This document shows, piece after piece, positions 77 through 31,600 of a stretch of DNA of 32,442 nt; position 1 is the stretch's first letter; each line of letters opens with the position of its first letter. The translations under genes and the position numbers were made by a program. The notes beneath the pieces were generated by a model that was not told the DNA's origin, did no database searches, and saw only the letters and a program-made list of their open reading frames with translations. The DNA is taken from contig CAJVPI010000375.1 in the NCBI GenBank assembly GCA_910592345.1, forward strand, positions 1 through 32,442, written 5' to 3'. The DNA comes from Paraglomus brasilianum (lineage: Eukaryota).

Positions 77-963
77 GACCAGGAAATTTGCAATCGATCG
101 ATAATTGATTGAGTTCAAGAACGCGTGAAATCTGGTGGAAACTTCCCGAATTCAGAAGCCAATTACGAGATGCTAATAAAATTATGAGTTGAGAGCATGT
201 TTAACGGATTTTTCTGGTATCAGGACATTATCCAGAAGAACGCGTTATGGTATTTTATTGGGTGAAAAAATTGGACTGGCCCTTGTCTATCGATACGAAA
301 CCCCACGGACATCAACGGATGTACAAAATCAAGTCTTATTATTATGGACCTTTCCTTACTAATGCAATAACAAAGCTTGGACGCAACATTTGATTTGGTC
401 CACCTTGTTAATAGAATTAAATCGAATCCAAGTCAACTCATGTTGTTATATATTGATGTCACCGGATCGACGAGGAACTTTACTTACAAACATTGCCGTC
501 CACCAGCAAACACAACAGCGACAGCACGTCATCAATCACGAAAAGTAAACAAAGAAGCAATATACTCGTTAATGAGCTTAATTTCTCGCTATCTACTATA
601 TGAAGTGTTTGCTAGGAAATAGGAACCGGAGTCCTCCTTCGAAACCCCCTCAATATTGGATGCGATTCGGATGACAATATAGAAGTTGCTGGATTAAACA
701 GAAAAGTAGAGGTGAGTTCTTCGTTGTCCAAGCGAAGCCATATAAATAATGACGCCCTAACATTAACAGTATAATTGTATTGCAAAGATTTATTAATATT
801 GGAAACTAATCATTTAAATTGAGACTCTTTGGTTACAGAAAATTTCCCTAATTTTGTTCTGTCCTGAAAAATTTGCTATAACCAGATTATAGCCTTAATT
901 TATAAAGTACCATTTTGAGTTGGTATAAATAAATCTTCACTCCATGCCTTCTGAAACTTCCTA

Positions 964-3873
964 TTATCTGTCATTTAGGAGAGCATCCAAGCACATGACT
1001 AAGTCGGTTGTATCATAACGCGCCTCTTTTGGCATTCCAACAAGTCTCAAAATACCATCTACGATGACAAAAAAGCGAAAGGGCCATGGTTTGTACAATT
1101 TTAAGAAAACGTCATCCATCGTATCTGCAAACACGGGAATTTCCAGCCGAGTCGCTTTGACCATTTCACGAGCAGCAGCTAAACGTTCATCTAATGTGCG
1201 GTGCTCCTTAACGCTCACAACATTACCAATAGGCCAAACATCGGAAGCATGTGCTTCTCGAATTTGAATCATGTAGAAATCGATTTGTGAATTATATTTC
1301 CTGTATATATCATTGAGCACATGAGATATGCATCGGTATAAAGGACAGGTATATGATCCACCGAGAATAACGAGTGGCCGTCCAGGTTGACAAAGTGAGC
1401 GCAAGGAAACTAGTGTTGATGAAGGGTCTAGTGGAACCAGTGGACAATCAGGTGCTGGCATTCCTTCGGTTAGATTTCCCAGATGACAAATGTTATTACG
1501 AACATACACTTGAGTTGTATGAAATCGAGGATCATCTGGATGATGAAGAAAAAAAAAGCCTTGAGTGCACGAAATCGCAAATGTCAAGGAAAATACATAA
1601 AGAATCGATAACCTCACCTGGATAAATTTGTGGGGCACGCCGTAGTAGTTGTACAGCCTCATCTGAATAGCCGAATTCTCGAACCAATTCATGCTACATC
1701 TGATCAGTAACATCCATCCAGTCCTTACCACATGTGGGATCAATCCCGACTTCATAATATCGCTTTTGTATTTCAGGTGAAAATCTTCGCTTCTCTTCTT
1801 CACGTAGCAGGGCTAACAGTTCCTCTTTTGTAGTTGGAAGTATTGGGGAAACAGTAACAGATGTGGATGCAGATGCGGATGCGGATGCAGATGTGGTATT
1901 GCTTAGATCATCCTTTGGATCTACGATTTTGCGAAAGTAATGTAGCACATCATGGAGCAAGTTGGAAATCGTAATACAATCAGAGCATAAGTCATAGTCA
2001 GGACATTCTAAACATTTATATCTGTAGGTGGAGGAAAAAGAGACATGTAAGCAGAATTGAAAATTTTTACAGATAATAATACATATGCAGCTAAATGATT
2101 ATTAATTAACCTTATTCCTTTCCATTCTTTTTTGCCACAATAATCACAGACAATACCAACATGAACTCCACATTGCAAAAGTTCTTCAGGTGTTTGCATA
2201 TATTGTGTGAGTGGGGGCAATGCATCAAATTCTTTACGGCCACTGGTTTCTTGAAGCATCCCACCACGTAGTCTAAGTACAAGATGCAATACGGACTCAT
2301 TCAAAATACCATAGTCTGCCAGAGTACGCCCATCTTCCAATTGCTTGCCAGCAAAAATCAGACGCTGTTGGTCAGGAGAGATGTCTTCTTTATCCATGAT
2401 CTTCTGTTTAACATTATCAATGGTATCAGACGAGTTTACTATTAAAGTTATTGTGCAACCAGTCAGTGTTTTCACATAGATGTGCATTCCTGAAATAATT
2501 TCAGAAGAATAAGAAGGCACAGGTTTATATCTAATTACAAGGTGTAATGTGGAATTATTTTGAATATTATAATCCGACAGAGTATTCCCATCTTCCAATT
2601 GCCGGCCAGCAAAAATCAGACGCTGTTGGTCAAGAGGGATGCCTTCTTTATCCAGGATCTTCTGTTTAACATTGCCAACAGTATCAGACGAGTCTACTGT
2701 TAAAGTTATCGTTTTACCAGTCAGTGTTTTCACAAAAATCGTTCCAAGTGGAATCCCAGAAGAAATCCCAGCTGATTTAATCATGAGTAGTAATGTGGTC
2801 TCATTTCGAAAATTGTAATCCATCAAGGTACGTGCATCTTCCAGGTGTCTGCCATTATGTACAAGAGATTGTTGATCAGGAGGAACACCTTCTTTATCAT
2901 GGATTTTTTTCTTGAACATGTAAATGGTTTCACACAATCCTACTTTCAAACTTATCGTTTTTCCAGTAGCCGTTTTGACAAAGACCGTTATTCTAACTAC
3001 AAGTTCCAGTGTGGACTCTTTTTGAATATGGTAATCTGACAGGGTATGTCTATCTTCCAGTTGCACATGAGCATAGCTAATTTGTTGTTGATAAGGAGGG
3101 ATGCCTTCCTGATCCTGGATCCTTTCTTTAAGTGAGGAAACGGTTTCATGCATATCTACTCCCAGGTTTAATATTTTTCCACTCATCAATTTCACATATA
3201 TTGTTGTTGAACCTCTTGGAATCTTTGGAACGCGAATGCTGGGTAATCTGCTAGGTTTAGGTTGTCTAGGTTGTAAATGCAACGTGGACTCTTTTTGAAT
3301 ATTGTAATATGACAAGGTGTATCTGTCATGTAGTTGCATGCCGTCAAATACGATATCGACTTGATCAAGAGTAACTCCTTCATCTTGAATCATTTTTTTA
3401 AGCTGGGAAATGGTGTCACTCCATCTCACATTCATTTCTATAATTTTTCCAGTTGTCAATTTCACATAGATTAGAATTGGGCCTGTTGAGAACTCTGTTG
3501 TAGTCGGCATTGACTCGACATGTGACGGGACAATTGCACTAGTTGAATTCTCGCCTCTATCATACTCAGCTTTGACCAAGTCTCCTTCCTGTGAAACAGA
3601 TATGTGAGTACTAACTCGTTTCCAAGCAAATCGCTTAAATATTATATACTTCACCTTGATTCCAAGTTTTTCAAGAGTATCTGCAAATTGGATGTCTTTA
3701 TCATCGTATGTAAGCTTGTAGTGACTATAACTCGTTCCTACACAAGCTTGGAAGTTCTTCAACAGTAACTCTCCAGTAGTGTATGTATTCACATTAGCTA
3801 CATATACAGACTCTGTAAGGAACCGAATGCGGATAGGAAATATCGGAGGAGCAGGCGCAGTAGTCAAACGCAT
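964..3873 (-). CDS. Multi-ubiquitin-like (6 UBL) - ZZ zinc finger - iodothyronine deiodinase-like fusion protein with one in-frame TAG (possible pseudogene allele)
   Basis: Inferred exons 3873-3655, 3588-2111, 2021-1618, 1535-964 joined by GT-AG introns of 66, 89 and 82 nt; 891 codons in one frame including TAG at 1696-1694 (codon 675). UBL motifs ([13 protein letters not shown]...[24 protein letters not shown]; last unit ends LRLRGG). Spliced ZZ finger [33 protein letters not shown]...H...H. Deiodinase motifs [28 protein letters not shown]...[10 protein letters not shown]. Confidence 0.85.
1859..1895 (-). repeat. Hexamer microsatellite encoding (SA)n linker
   Basis: gatgtg/gatgca/gatgcg units on + strand encode [12 protein letters not shown] on minus strand after the ZZ finger. 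Confidence 0.7.
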
Positions 3874-4564
3874 TTTGTGACAAGCATTCTTCGTTATCTT
3901 TACGATTCAGTGTCTTTATAGTTACCTTCATTGTTTGGCCCTATTAGGAAAGGCCATATCGTAATAACACCGGAAGAACTGTCCGAGACGCCACCAATAT
4001 ACGAAACAATTACCTAACCCCCAAACAAACCGAATAAAGGAACGCGTACTCACCTATGCATCACAAGGAGCCCCTGAGCACAGGGAATAAACAGCACGGA
4101 TCAATCAGATTACCAGGCCAGGGCCCTCGTAATAACCTTAACGTTAGTCATCGCCGCATGCATAAACTATAGTGTTTACGATGTTCTGTTTAAACATATT
4201 GAGACAAGAAGAATACAGTATCCACGAACGTAGTTAAGCGACAGCCTGAATCGTTCGTTTCTGATGATAGTTTTGACATAATAAGAATTGCAGTTGAAAC
4301 TCTTGCGAGTCTCTTAATGGTTCAAACTGGTGTTGCCTGCATTGTAAACATCCCTTAAAAACAGATCGTCGGTCTTCTGCAAGAATTCTATTTAAGGTTT
4401 CGACTATTTGCAATCATAGTGCCTTACAATAGTTTACAATATATAAACCTCTACAAACTGCTAACGCCTTAATGCATCAACGGTAAGCAACATACCTTCT
4501 ACTTACTATTTTCAAGGATTAAGTATTAACTTCTAGTCCATACTTATTATCAACTATTAAATAG

Positions 4565-8724: not shown

Positions 8725-11241
8725 CTACGCATCTCTTTTGGAGCCCTGCTGCTTTTGTTGGCCTCGTCGCATCAAGTTCTTTCTAACGCTTGTAGGACTA
8801 TGTCCCACGCCACCGGTGGGATCAAGAGACAAATACGGTACTCTTTCCCATGGTACTCCACATAAATGTGTGGAAGATTTAGAATTATGATCTAGCATGG
8901 CCCATACTGGAAGTTCAAGACTTCCTTTCATGATGGCAGTTACTTTTCTGAGAGTAGTATATGAAACTGGAGTGAGGATATGGAGTGTATTAGTGGAAGG
9001 AGAAATGGATCTGATTATGGCCAGTCCATGGCAGGTGTAGTTTGTTGGGTGTGGAAGCGGATGTGGGGGAGATCGGTAGTAGAGGGGTGGATGCTGATAA
9101 ATATGATATAATATGAAATAATGTGAATTAAAATTGTTCCAAGAGTAATGAGATGTATTAATGTAAGATATCAAATACCTATCAGGCATAATACGCTTCT
9201 GACAGTTATTCCAACTTACCGCACCAACAGACTCTGTAACATTTATCTTTTCGTTATTATAACGATCTTCTTTATCCTCATCACACACTTCCACAACCGC
9301 CTCTTTATCGACAACTGCATCTCCAATCAGCCCAACAACAGATCCGTTAAGAGCGTACAATAGGTGACTCAATGATACATCTGAGTTGATTAAAATCACG
9401 CCTTTGCTCAATCCTTTCTTCCAATTCAGACACCAAGGTACCCGATATACTAGTGGGTTGTTATAATCCCACCATGGTGAGTTCAACTCTAATAGATTTG
9501 ACGCATAAAAATATGATAAAAAGTTTAATGTCCGTCGAGTATGTGGAGTGAGACGAGTTGAGCTTGAGACAGAATCCGGAATATCAATGAGGATATGCTT
9601 TGGAAGATAATCTTTATGTTGAATATCAGAGGTAGTAGGAATGGTAGGACAGTTACGATAGAGGTTTGTTGGTGAATGGAATTGAAATATGTGTGTTGGA
9701 TTGAGAAATTTGATAATTTCGAGGAAGATGTCATGGCCCAGACCTGCAATCAAATTTAGCAGTTCAAATTTTGAATTTACATACAAATACAAGAACTCGT
9801 ATACTTGTAAATTTAATTTGACAATTACTGACCTTTGGTCCAGCCGTGAGCATTAAATATTAAGGGTACTATGCCTTGGCTTCTTGTGTCCTCATCCATA
9901 TGTCCCATTCGTTCCATTGCAATTTCATGTCGATATACGTTAACCAACTCGTTTAAACATGTGAGATAATAATCGGGATCATCCCTTGGCTTTGTATCGC
10001 CAATAAAATATGATCGATACGGTTGAGAGAGATGTGTAAATGAAGGCCCTATTGATCAATAAGTTAGTCAACCAAAGACTCCGAGAAGATATACGTGATG
10101 TCCTTAATGTAATGGTCAGATACCAAATAAAGGTGATTCGCAAACGGTTAGAGACACAAGGCCAGCGGGTGTGAATTCTGACTGTCCAACATCACTTTCC
10201 ACATATGCAACTTTGGGAAATCTATTCGAAGAGTAATGTAGCAATAAGATTGAAATACTCGAATGGTGACAGACAGGAGCAGATAACATACATGTTCAAT
10301 AGAGCATTTATCAGCATTCTTGAGAACGTTGATTTTCCAACATTCTTTTGGCCGTATGTGATGCTAATTGCTGGTATACTCCTAGAAGCTGCAAAATAAT
10401 CGAAAACCTCAACAATGATTGTCATATTCCAATATTGAGACAACGTCAAGCTTACCTAGTTGCACAGCTTCAGCAACAAATTGATTGATAGCCCCAGTCC
10501 AGGTCTCCGTTGAGGAAAGAGCGAATAGGCCAGGAGTGCTTTCAAATATCTACAATAATGTTATCAACGTCTAATTCCAGAATCTTACAATTCGTCGTAT
10601 CATACCGGATGGAATAATCTTAATCTGAACAAATCTTCTGCATCTGCATTGACCTCCTGACCGACTTGTCCAGAAAACAAATTCTTATATAAAGACGGTG
10701 CCACTCTTTCGATTCCATCAACTCCGCACCAAGCCATCTCACGCAATATAATAATTAAGAGAATATCGTCTGTATCCATGAGTTGATTTAATAGCTCTAT
10801 GGCTATTCGTTTTTCGTCTTTGGTAACTTTGATACTACTGCGGGCATTTAATTCGCTTTCTGTTGGCCATCTGTCAGGTTCCAATTTCAGCAATCCATCG
10901 CTAGAAGGCGAGAATAAAGGATAGTATGGAATCGTGACATTTTCATCGAGTAGATCGGTGAACCGAATGTTGTAACTGATGGGTATTGGCCCACGTAAAG
11001 TATGGTTCATGATAGTGATCGAACCTAAAATTGGAGCTACTAAAATGCAACCTTGGAAACATATTGACTTGTTGCGTTAGAATTAAAAATAAATAGATAT
11101 TAATAAATCCTCTAAAGCAACATGTAATATAAGATATCGGATGGCTACCTCATCTCTTCTCATGATCACCAAACATAATCCAGGCGCTTCTTCAGAACGA
11201 AGTACATTCAATCGAGTTGGAGTAAACTGTGATATGGCCAT
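8725..11241 (-). CDS. GRC3: Polynucleotide 5'-hydroxyl kinase Grc3/Nol9 (Clp1 family), multi-exon
   Basis: P-loop GQKNVGKSTFSRMLINALL, ESDVGQSEFTPAGLVSL, PLIFNAHGWTKGLG (across an intron), C-terminal CHGLAIIRSI...LHILTP...VPYLS; start MAISQFTP at 11241 has an in-frame TAA just upstream; internal exon limits approximate. Confidence 0.9.
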
Positions 11242-24940: not shown

Positions 24941-24980
24941 TAGATCCCAGCCAACTTCAACTTGACAATTAACAAACAAA

Positions 24981-26790
24981 ATGAGTACAGAAAAACGCTC
25001 TCGGACAAACTCGATTTCTTCATCTTCCTCACAAACTTCGCAAGACTTTCTTGCTCAACGCAAAAAAGCACTCAAGGAATTTGATGAAGCCATCATCAAT
25101 TCGTCGCACTTTAGAGTCTGCTTAGTAGCGAGCGCCGGTTTCTTCACCTCAGGGTATAGTCTAAATACAATCAGCTTTGTACTGTTAATGTTAGGCGCAT
25201 ATGGTAACGATGCGCCCACTCGATTTATCATGAGAACTTCGGTTCGGTTTGGCTCTATATTGGGTCACTTGCTATTCGGCTACATGGCCGACAAGTATGG
25301 ACGGAAAAAAGTAATAGTAATGAATATAGTTGAAGAGTCGAATTCAAAAGTCGTGTAAATCCTAATTCATGTTTTTTCGATTTACGCAGATGTTTGGCGT
25401 AGAGTTGATCCTCGTGGTGATCGGCACGCTGTTTTCTGCTATAGCTGGACAGAGTCTTGCCGTGTCATTTGTGGGCAGTTTCGTCTTTTGTCGAGTCATT
25501 CTCGGCATAGGAATTGGTGGGGATTACCCAATTAGTGCGCGTATGTATCATTTCTTTATATTAAAGGTAACATTTTCAACGCACGACTTAATTTACCATT
25601 TATTCGCCCACAGTTATCATCTCTGAACTTGCGCCTACAAGATTCAGGGGAAGAATGTTGGCAGCAGGGTTTGCCATTTTTGCCTTGGGGATGCTTTCGG
25701 CTGGCATTGTCTCTATTATCGTTCTTGCTGCGTTCCGAGAATCCATCGACCATGATCCACAAAGTCTCGATTATGTGTGGAGACTTACTGTCGGGTTTGG
25801 CGCTATACCTGCGATAATCGCACTGTACTTTAGATTATCGATTCCCGAGACACCTCGCTATATAATCGACGTTGAAGGAGAAATCGATTGGACTCACAAA
25901 ATCGAACCGTCGCAGATTGGAAACTACGACTACCAAAGAAAATCCAAACCAACGCAAAGCACAAACCATTTGCTCGACATGTACAAACATTTTCGTTCAG
26001 GAAAAAGCGGAAAATACTTGATTGTGACGTCTCTGATTTGGTTCTGCGCCAACATTAGCTCAACTGGATATCGGGCTGATGCTCTTGTTGATGGAATTAT
26101 CATAAATAATGGCGAGAGCTCGCCTTATACTGTTCTCATGCAACATAATTTGAACAATGTGATTCGCCTTATTGTTGGTTATATACCTGGTGCCTTACTT
26201 ACCATATGTCTAATAGACCGGTGGGGCAGAAAACCTATTTTATACACTGGGTTTACGGCATGTGCAATTTTATTCACCCTTTCGGGATTCTTGATTCAGT
26301 TTGTGCAAATAGACGAACTGGGTCAAAGCCGTTTATATTATTCAGTTTCTACCGTCACTCTCGTAAGCATTCAGTTTTTGAAAAATTCTTGACAGCACAG
26401 CTTATTTTTCCCCCAATGCTAACCGTAAAACAACTTTATTTTTTAAAACATTACTAGTTCTTTTTAACGTTCGGTTCGCAAGCGGTGGCCTTCGTCGTGC
26501 CCGCCGAACTATTTCCAACACGCTATCGTTCAACTGCTTATGGTATAAGCGCAGCGTTTGGAAAAGTTGGCGTCATACTGTCCTATTTGATATTTGAATG
26601 GCTTTATGACGTCCATTCGGTTGAAAATTTTCGGTCGCGATTTTTCGTTGCCTCTCTCGTGTATTCCGTCTCCATGGTAATTGGGGCAGCGTCTACAACT
26701 CGTTTACCTGAGACCAACAATGAGCCGTTGGAGAAAATTGCTGACGACGGTGAATTTGTTGCAAGACGCCATAATTCCACGGATGTGTAA
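24981..26790 (+). CDS. Divergent PHO84/PHT1-like MFS transporter (PHS family), copy A, about 520 aa
   Basis: Exons 24981-25310, 25390-25540, 25614-26362, 26458-26790 splice in frame; motifs ADKYGRKK, LGIGIGGDYP, RGRM, PETPRY, DRWGRK, PAELFPTRYRSTAYGISAAFGK, LPET. Confidence 0.92.
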
Positions 26791-29700: not shown

Positions 29701-29810
29701 AAAGTAGAAACAATGGGTATACGTACTTCTCGGCGAACATTTTTTTTCTCCTACTGCCTCCATAATAAATACAGCACATTCCCGTCCAAATTGAATATAG
29801 ATGTTACAAA

Positions 29811-31600
29811 ATGGCTAACCGGAAAAACAATCCCTCTGAGACAAACTCAATTTCCTCAAATGATTTTCTCGCTCAACGCAAAAAAAAACTCACGGAATTT
29901 GATAACGCCAAATTCTCTTCGTTGCACATTAGGGCCTGCCTAGTAGCAAGCGCGGGTTTCTTCACCGATGGATACAGTCTACATGCAATCAGCTTTGTGC
30001 TGTTGATGTTGGACTATGTTTATGGTGATGATAACCTTACTGCATCTGCCCGGTTTATGTTAAAATCTTCGATTCGGGTTGGCGCTGTAGTGGGCCACTT
30101 ACTGTTCGGCTATTATGCCGATAAATATGGACGGAAAAAGGTAATAGTAATGAATATAGTTGAAGAATCGAATTCTAATTGGTTGTCATGTAAATCCTAA
30201 TTTATGTTGTCGATTTTTATGCAGATGTTCGGAGTAGAGCTGATAATCGTGGTGATCGGTACGCTGTTTTCAGCTATCGCTGGCCAGGGTCCTGCCGTAT
30301 CGTTTGTGGGCAGTTTCGCCTTTTGTCGAGTTATTCTCGGCATAGGAATTGGTGGGGATTACCCCATCAGCGCACGTACGTACTATTTCTTTATATTAAA
30401 GATAACATTTCAATGCACGACCTAATTTACCATTTATTCGCCACAGTTATCATTTCTGAGCTTGTGCCAGCAAGACTCAGGGGAAGAATGCTGGCAGCAG
30501 GTTTTGCGATTTTTGCCTTCGGCATGCTTTCTGCCGGTATTGTCTCTGCTGTCGTTCTTACTGCATTCCGTGCAGCCATCGATCGAGATCCACAAAATCT
30601 TGATTATGCATGGAGAATTATTATTGGATTTGGCGCTATACCTGCGATAATCGCATTGTATTTTCGTTTGTCAATTGGCGAAACGCCTCGCTATATAATC
30701 GACGTTGAAGGAGAAATCGACAACATAGAATTATCGCAGATTGGAAATTACAAATCCCCAAGAAGACCCAAACCGACACAAAGCACAAATCATTTACGAG
30801 ACATGTATAAACATTTTCGTTCAGGAAATAGCGGGAAATATCTGCTCGCGACGTCTGTCATCTGGTTTTGTATCAACTTCTGTTCGACTGGATATCGGGC
30901 TGATGCCCTTGTTGATGGAATCATCATAAATAAGGGCGAGAGCTCGTCTTATAATGTCCTCATAGAACATAATGTGAACAATGTGCTTCGCCTTCTTCTT
31001 GGCTATGTTCCCGGTGCTTTAGTCACCGTGTACCTAATAGACAAATGGGGCCGAAAACCCATTTTATACGTTGGGTTTACGGCATGTGCAATTTTATTCG
31101 CCCTCTTGGGCTTCTTGATCCAATTTGTGCAAATAGATGAACTGGGTCGAAACCGTTTATATTATTCGGTTTCTACCGTTACTCTCGTAAGCATTCAGTT
31201 TTTGAAAAAATTGTTGCCAGTTTATTAAAAATTTTTTTCGATCCTAATAGTAAGACAACTTTCTTTTTTAAATCATTACTAGTTCTTTTTGGTCGGTCCG
31301 CATTCGGTAATCTTTGTCGTGCCAGCCGAACTATTTCCTACCCGCTATCGCTCAACGGCTTACGGTGCAGCCGCATCGTTTGGAAAATCAGGTAGCATAT
31401 TATGCTACCTGATTTTTGAATGGCTTTACGATGTTCGTGGGATTTTTCATCCGCGTTTTCTCGTTGTTTCTCTGATTTATGCTGCTTTCATGGCAGTTGG
31501 AGCTGCGGGTACCACTCTTTTACCCGAGACAAACAATAAACCATTGGAGGAAATTGCCGGCGACGACGAATATGTCTCTTTGAATGCAAAAAATCCGTAA
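29811..31600 (+). CDS. Divergent PHO84/PHT1-like MFS transporter (PHS family), copy B, about 512 aa
   Basis: Exons 29811-30140, 30225-30375, 30447-31186, 31283-31600 splice in frame; same intron positions and motifs as copy A. Confidence 0.92.

Follow-up and report, generated by a model that had tools for sequence, protein, structure and literature searches.

The window, a 32,442-nucleotide stretch of Paraglomus brasilianum DNA (contig CAJVPI010000375.1, assembly GCA_910592345.1), contains one genuine spliced gene that encodes an 890-residue protein, with glutamine at position 675 in most copies. The protein runs from a chain of ubiquitin-like domains, the last of which ends in LRLRGG, through a conserved Met arm, a ZZ zinc finger and a soluble helical cap to a deiodinase-type thioredoxin fold with cysteine at the active site. 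The LRLRGG|M junction is the strongest clue to mechanism and was absent from an earlier note on this DNA. The fold and catalytic residues are known from deiodinases; the conserved ubiquitin-GG, Met arm and cap architecture appears to be new. We propose, with moderate confidence, that the product is a precursor from which a deubiquitinase cut would free a soluble thiol oxidoreductase for protein quality control.

Gene structure and transcripts

The gene lies on the minus strand, with its ATG at 3873, and three GT..AG introns join the exons into 891 codons including the final stop, as had been proposed from three separate open reading frames. Exon 1 (3655..3873) is followed by intron 1 (3589..3654; 66 nt, in frame), exon 2 (2111..3588), intron 2 (2022..2110; 89 nt), exon 3 (1618..2021), intron 3 (1536..1617; 82 nt), and the coding part of exon 4 (964..1535), which ends in TAA. 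All three joints are present in RNA-type contigs from four runs: that of intron 1 in X5, X12, X15, and X14, that of intron 2 in X5, X12, and X14, and that of intron 3 in X5 and X12. RNA contigs extend to 3873–3876 at the start of the gene and, together with the spliced model, define exons 2 to 4. An X5 contig (678–1535) carries the 3' untranslated region at least to 678 (678..963).

The stretch between the fourth ubiquitin-like domain and the 3' untranslated region, both included, is covered by RNA contigs of two studies that overlap one another. One X5 contig (2574–1870) covers the last ubiquitin-like domain, the GG|Met junction, the ZZ finger and intron 2, and one X12 contig (2215–943) crosses introns 2 and 3; none of the contigs examined runs from ubiquitin to the enzyme in one piece. 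Where the window and the RNA contigs differ in the thioredoxin part, synonymous changes do not strongly prevail (3/6 in X12 and 2/6 in X14, from partial lists).

Ubiquitin-like domains and the Met arm

Five ubiquitin-like domains passed both Pfam and phmmer. The sixth in the earlier count of six, a degenerate N-terminal domain (residues 12–80; 3568..3840, minus strand, as are all features of the protein below), was recognized by eye only, with no Pfam stretch passing and 14–29% identity to the other five. Four internal domains (2524..3474; individually 3474–3259, 3207–2989, 2991–2770, and 2745–2524) have no GG end and share 40–54% mutual identity. The last domain (residues 441–516; 2260..2487) is the only one in the window protein to end in LRLRGG, and 60 of its 76 residues, counted from the alignment, are identical to ubiquitin. 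It retains L8, R42, I44, H68, V70, R72, and R74, including the Leu8/Ile44/Val70 patch, and so combines a ubiquitin fold, an LRLRGG end and an intact recognition surface, the marks of a ubiquitin fusion. Ubiquitin-fusion precursors (ubiquitin-eL40, ubiquitin-eS31, and polyubiquitin) share the arrangement of LRLRGG followed in frame by another protein. The fungal ubiquitin differs in being diverged (60/76) and placed behind one to five GG-less domains, and what follows it is an enzyme that carries a conserved Met arm. The chain is also distinct from polyubiquitin, as its repeats are 40–70% identical and GG is found only on the last.

An 11-residue Met-arm motif (2227..2259) follows immediately after GG and conforms to the family pattern M-x-x-x-x-[SN]-G-[RK]-x-x-[FY]. 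The motif is preceded by xGG in 51 of 53 fungal junctions, compared with 6 among 119 internal domains. A Met-free version of the pattern, applied to 85 loci, recovered Met at position -5 in 28/28 motifs, including internal ones, which also occur downstream of F-box, DnaJ or ZZ domains. The residue preceding the motif in non-ubiquitin relatives is often not Gly, and the motif itself therefore does not require GG. A copper-binding x-x-His N-terminus was ruled out because His is not invariant (15/28, with Gln in most fungal copies), and myristoylation of relatives that start with MG was not supported, position 6 being variable. The Met arm was placed in neither of two homologue models (pLDDT about 31 and about 50).

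ZZ finger, helical cap and deiodinase-type domain

The ZZ finger (residues 549–598; 1925..2163) is interrupted by intron 2 and, as predicted, is completed by splicing at the joint seen in three runs. Pfam matched the exon-3 half (E 3.4e-5), and the spliced finger has the three CxxC pairs and HxxxH that form two-zinc ligands. The ZZ of a homologue matches the readers p62/SQSTM1, HERC2, KCMF1, and PRT1 (E 9e-8 to 5e-3). Like such readers of protein N-termini, the window protein carries the zinc ligands, and three of its pocket positions are Asp, but its ZZ is optional in the family and is accompanied by no PB1, UBA or RING domain. The acidic-pocket positions read D-G-D-D in the window; we take the p62 positions that receive a free N-terminus to be D129, N132, D147, and D149. 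The N-degron or autophagy role previously suggested for the finger is conjectural: our own pattern recovered ZZ in only 36 of 66 homologues, and in 28 of these the first acidic pocket position is Asn (N-G-D-D).

The Ser-Ala linker, the helical segment and the deiodinase-like fold described earlier are all present. The linker (1865..1891) is length-polymorphic, being 12 nt shorter in X12 and 6 nt shorter in X14. The soluble helical cap (residues 632–715; 1492..1825) had no Pfam or PDB sequence match, a profile compared with PDB matched the thioredoxin part only, and an Atlas look-up returned no usable match. In models of two homologues, whose mean pLDDT values are 77 and 87.5, both the cap and the fold are confident; the ZZ was also unplaced in the first of these.

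The deiodinase-type thioredoxin fold (967..1500; Pfam T4_deiodinase E 1.8e-25) includes the active-site motif GGSYTCP (1362–1342), an 11-residue motif (1266–1234), KEHR (1209–1198) and WPFR (1086–1075). Foldseek searches with a homologue model gave Dio2 and Dio3 as best matches (E 2e-13 and 2e-12), and comparison of a homologue model with 4tr4 (Dio3) by VIA gave Z 23.7, rmsd 4.9 and 179 aligned residues, with the next row at 16.0, confirming the expected structural likeness to deiodinases. The active site of the window protein has Cys (TGT) rather than Sec, and no SECIS-like hairpin was found in the window's 3' untranslated region. When compared to Dio3, with residue numbering and roles as given in sections of PMC7506546 and PMC9141512, the homologue P0004 keeps Ser167, Thr169, Glu200, His202, Trp207, His219, Arg225, and Arg260. 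Sec170 is Cys in P0004, Cys168 differs, Tyr197 is Gln, the distal Cys239 is Ile, and Tyr257/Phe258/Glu259 are Trp/Pro/Phe; Tyr197 and Cys239 are conserved across DIO1-3. The catalytic set of Ser, Thr, Cys, Glu, His, Trp, His, and Arg is kept, with the S-x-T-U/C-P motif, as the motifs of the window protein and the counts across the family also indicate. The proximal Cys is replaced by Tyr, His or Leu in the family, and DIO2 likewise lacks it, according to a section of PMC9141512. A C-terminal Cys is kept in 49 of 56 fungal copies. No membrane helix was found in the protein, where the maximum 19-residue hydropathy is 1.43, compared with 1.6–2.6 in four animal-type deiodinases. DIO1-3 (PF00837; PDB 4TR3/4TR4, 9H48) and the fungal protein have in common a thioredoxin/peroxiredoxin fold that includes the deiodinase loop, the motifs S-x-T-(U/C)-P and E-A-H-x-x-D-x-W, and the downstream His and Arg. 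The fungal protein differs in its soluble helical cap, which replaces the membrane anchor, in its Cys, in lacking both the proximal and the distal Cys, in Gln for Tyr197, in the ubiquitin chain, Met arm and ZZ that precede the enzyme, and in its position in a separate clade.

A gene family of arbuscular mycorrhizal fungi

All 66 matches longer than 331 residues belong to arbuscular mycorrhizal genera, often with several per species. One to six ubiquitin domains precede the same enzyme domain in 64 of the 66, and the junction motif was recovered by our own pattern in 53 and was absent by that pattern in 13. Judged from these protein sequences, the fixed core is ubiquitin-GG, motif, cap and enzyme, with ZZ and extra domains optional. 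Database labels of the members are automatic, either 'iodothyronine deiodinase' or 'ubiquitin-domain-containing protein'. A wide-profile search for fusions longer than 637 residues returned none and is weak, since such fungal proteins are known. A quick tree (107 rows, site residue masked; left out were three proteins and any locus that had stops, several TGA codons or a short stretch) separated the capped module from animal-type and bacterial-type proteins (support 99) and placed Gonapodya sp. P0074, which has a helical cap, as sister to the mycorrhizal clade (support 96). The P0074 model skips the active-site stretch and continues into a ketopantoate reductase, probably a misprediction around a Sec codon.

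Deiodinase homologues outside animals have been reported before, in available sections of the respective papers, as DI-like selenoproteins of Dictyostelium, where the finding was called unexpected (PMC2375036), and of Gonapodya prolifera (bioRxiv 10.1101/314781). The word 'ubiquitin' has no match in the main texts of these two papers, and the main-text parts available do not describe a helical cap, a Met arm or ubiquitin coupling. No description of the fusion was found in the literature covered, mostly open-access papers, on deiodinase and deiodinase-like proteins with ubiquitin, fungi, giant viruses, rotifers, and protists.

Selenoprotein relatives and split genes

Seven rotifer proteins combine ubiquitin, xGG, M[YF]H[FI]TSGR and a helical cap, and their models end at GSYT. 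These bdelloid models (P0245, P0247, P0249, P0250, P0254, P0256, and P0259) stop exactly there, with the remainder in separate 117-residue models, likely a split selenoprotein present in multiple copies. From the protein models we infer a TGA at the rotifer active site. Of 86 metagenome and viral loci, 65 were parsed by the first pattern, and all 65 have TGA as the site codon, although one of the two search patterns demanded Trp or Cys at the active site. These TGA codons align with Cys and have sense sequence on both sides, as expected for Sec. SECIS-like hairpins were identified with our own pattern in 16 of 46 3' regions (0.4 expected) and with a looser setting in 13 of 21 (1.0 expected; four loci shared with the first count), and the Rfam SECIS model matched 1 of 20, below its cut-off. 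The rotifer, giant-virus and metagenome relatives are predicted to be selenoproteins. A helical cap is present in 80 of the 86 loci and in none of the 80 best-scoring among 496 prokaryote loci, and the metagenome relatives probably derive from microbial eukaryotes. Many environmental relatives start at the Met-arm motif without ubiquitin, and the partners found upstream of the capped module in distant lineages are ubiquitin, ZZ, F-box, and DnaJ. The bacterial deiodinase family (NF038285) shares the thioredoxin part (E 1.5e-19), but the match falls far under the family's cut-off (70.7 vs 250 bits). Bacterial deiodinase-like genes (best 80, from Planctomycetota, Acidobacteriota, and others) have TGA at the site in 79 of 80 but no helical cap.

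Seven loci (L045, L049, L054, L060, L065, L069, and L076) have ubiquitin-GG in frame upstream and, in all seven, one TGA between tail and cap with no other stop; three are close kin, leaving about five independent groups. This linker TGA is a second in-frame TGA in each of the seven, and Cys adjoins it in L054, L060, and L065 (C-U) and in L076 (U-C). Read-through is likely in L069, because no Met occurs for 87 codons after the linker TGA. TGA is a common stop in GC-rich loci, and some of the seven may therefore be adjacent genes.

The ubiquitin-motif part and the enzyme are separate neighboring genes at four loci. An independent junction scan of viral contigs yielded 10 ubiquitin-motif loci, four of them with an enzyme gene within 0.2–2.3 kb (two on the opposite strand) and a fifth with an enzyme gene elsewhere in the same genome bin. 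Six of the 10 have no enzyme gene within the available DNA, and several viral enzyme genes have no Met arm in cis, so the pairing of arm and module may not be obligate. We propose that the two act together mainly on the grounds that the separate viral genes are linked. Nine loci on viral contigs of giant-virus type, four labelled GVMAG (L082–L086, L170–L172, and L175), encode the capped module with TGA at the active site, and L082, L083, L084, and L086 have SECIS-like hairpins downstream at the looser setting, making them candidate viral selenoproteins. Database entries from Terrestrivirus and Catovirus resemble post-TGA halves (103- and 114-residue fragments). On a 341 kb viral contig, L081:2419-3771 holds a Pfam ubiquitin-like domain, a ZZ-like finger (by eye), the cap and a TGA enzyme in one frame, a layout that is nearly that of the window gene but without the Met-arm motif.

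Proposed processing and function

Ubiquitin ending in LRLRGG is normally cut fast by deubiquitinases in eukaryotic cells. A cut after LRLRGG (GG|M) would release two products: a soluble enzyme of 374 residues whose first residue is the invariant Met, and the chain of ubiquitin-like domains, now with GG as its free end. The relatives that start at the motif without ubiquitin match this predicted enzyme product. The freed enzyme is a predicted single-thiol oxidoreductase of the deiodinase/peroxiredoxin type, and the Met arm may dock on the cap and thioredoxin module, as a gate or as a first substrate, in cis for the fungal protein and in trans for those of giant viruses. An oxidized or halogenated residue on a protein client would be reduced by the active Cys, which is Sec in relatives. 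Since the enzyme has neither of the resolving cysteines of deiodinases, it would need an outside thiol to be reset, supplied by glutathione, thioredoxin or a partner; the C-terminal Cys is a candidate. The ZZ and the ubiquitin-like chain may be interchangeable adaptors, either recruiting protein clients or positioning the enzyme at the ubiquitin-proteasome system. The proposal that a deiodinase-like thiol enzyme is coupled to ubiquitin-system domains is supported, and the coupling recurs in distant lineages, with ubiquitin, ZZ, F-box, and DnaJ ahead of the same module. These recurring partners favor protein clients, and the many partner-free relatives make such clients provisional.

A different reading, which we consider rather unlikely, is that the enzyme is a small-molecule reductive dehalogenase or peroxidase, acting on halogenated aromatics of soil and roots, with ubiquitin as an expression or folding aid as in the eL40 and eS31 fusions. 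It would account for the retained deiodinase catalytic residues and the many relatives without a partner domain, and Cys forms can function: sections of PMC9141512 and PMC8143656 report that DIO1 U126C is active and that an amphioxus Cys enzyme deiodinates triac, respectively. However, Tyr197 is Gln and Tyr257/Phe258/Glu259 are Trp/Pro/Phe, the module falls in a clade apart from animal- and bacterial-type proteins (99 in the quick tree), and a folding aid leaves up to six domains, ZZ, F-box and linked viral genes unexplained. We regard it as unlikely that the protein stays uncut and acts as a ubiquitin-like-domain shuttle, with the proteasome or p97 as the site to which the enzyme is tethered. 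In 64 of 66 homologues, one to six such domains are indeed kept, and the internal ones are uncuttable at GG, but GG is kept selectively on the last domain, and ubiquitin with an intact LRLRGG is normally cleaved rapidly in eukaryotic cells.

The in-frame TAG and the gene model

The earlier note described one open frame and overlooked a TAG at codon 675 (1694..1696; 1696–1694 on the minus strand), inside the stretch that it abbreviated 'DWMDVT...FGY'. The codon is CAG (Gln) in 6 of 7 covering runs, namely the RNA-type runs X5, X12, X15, and X14 and two DNA runs of the same sample, X1 and X3. The one run that agrees with the window is X4, which has the greatest depth among the three same-sample DNA runs compared (640 vs 77 and 41). 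Gln occupies this position in 62 of 62 parsed homologues (66 examined). Read-through of TAG or an altered genetic code was ruled out by CAG in homologues and in the other runs. The deposited model for the locus (P0001, 787 residues) omits 551–631 and 664–685, evading the TAG by two extra introns and thereby losing the ZZ finger. An intron of this kind was ruled out, as RNA contigs are continuous through both omitted stretches.

Because the six other runs have CAG, the TAG probably either arose as an amplification error and prevailed in the assembly consensus or is a minor nuclear allele. That the copy is instead broken in this isolate, with TAG as a real allele whose message decays or yields 674 residues that lack the enzyme, is very unlikely. 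The window and X4 at depth 640 both carry TAG, and arbuscular mycorrhizal fungi are multinucleate, so a minor allele is possible, but X1 and X3 from the same sample have CAG, as do four RNA-type runs, and the error that whole-genome amplification usually introduces is C-to-T. A fusion of two adjacent genes by gene prediction, to which the viral split genes and the absence of a single contig spanning the whole coding region might point, is extremely improbable given the overlap of X5 (1870–2574) and X12 (943–2215) across the junction, ZZ and both introns, and the fusion in 64 of 66 fungal models.

Other features of the window

Positions 1–75 of the window are 75 A, and X4 has a poly-T loose end at 3399; both are probably assembly or amplification artefacts. 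A NOL9 C-terminal domain fragment (8725–9852, minus strand; Pfam E 2e-8) likely belongs to a Grc3/Nol9 polynucleotide kinase gene. Two similar spliced genes (24966–26790 and 29769–31600), in tandem on opposite strands, resemble major-facilitator phosphate transporters by eye. A 147-residue protein (21934–22386, minus strand) has a signal-peptide-like start and no Pfam match.

Implications

What deiodinase homologues do in organisms that lack thyroid hormone has been a question since the amoeba finding (PMC2375036). The Paraglomus enzyme is a soluble, natural Cys form with a clue to its partner, which makes this question approachable without selenium recoding or membranes. The comparison also points to a selenoprotein family that is cut at UGA in gene databases, as seen in the rotifer GSYT ends and the viral fragments. 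A broader reading, which we offer tentatively as possible though doubtful, is that eukaryotes and giant viruses have an ancient redox system made of two parts. One would be ubiquitin with an invariant Met peptide after Gly76; the other would be an enzyme of deiodinase fold, with Sec or Cys, that binds this peptide or modifies it after a deubiquitinase has exposed it. Lineages would set the ratio of the two by full fusion (mycorrhizal fungi and rotifers), by a leaky in-frame UGA between them, or by separate linked genes (giant viruses). If true, giant viruses would encode SECIS-bearing selenoproteins. For the fungi themselves, the finding points to a multi-copy gene family of crop symbionts, with a deposited model that is wrong at the Paraglomus locus.
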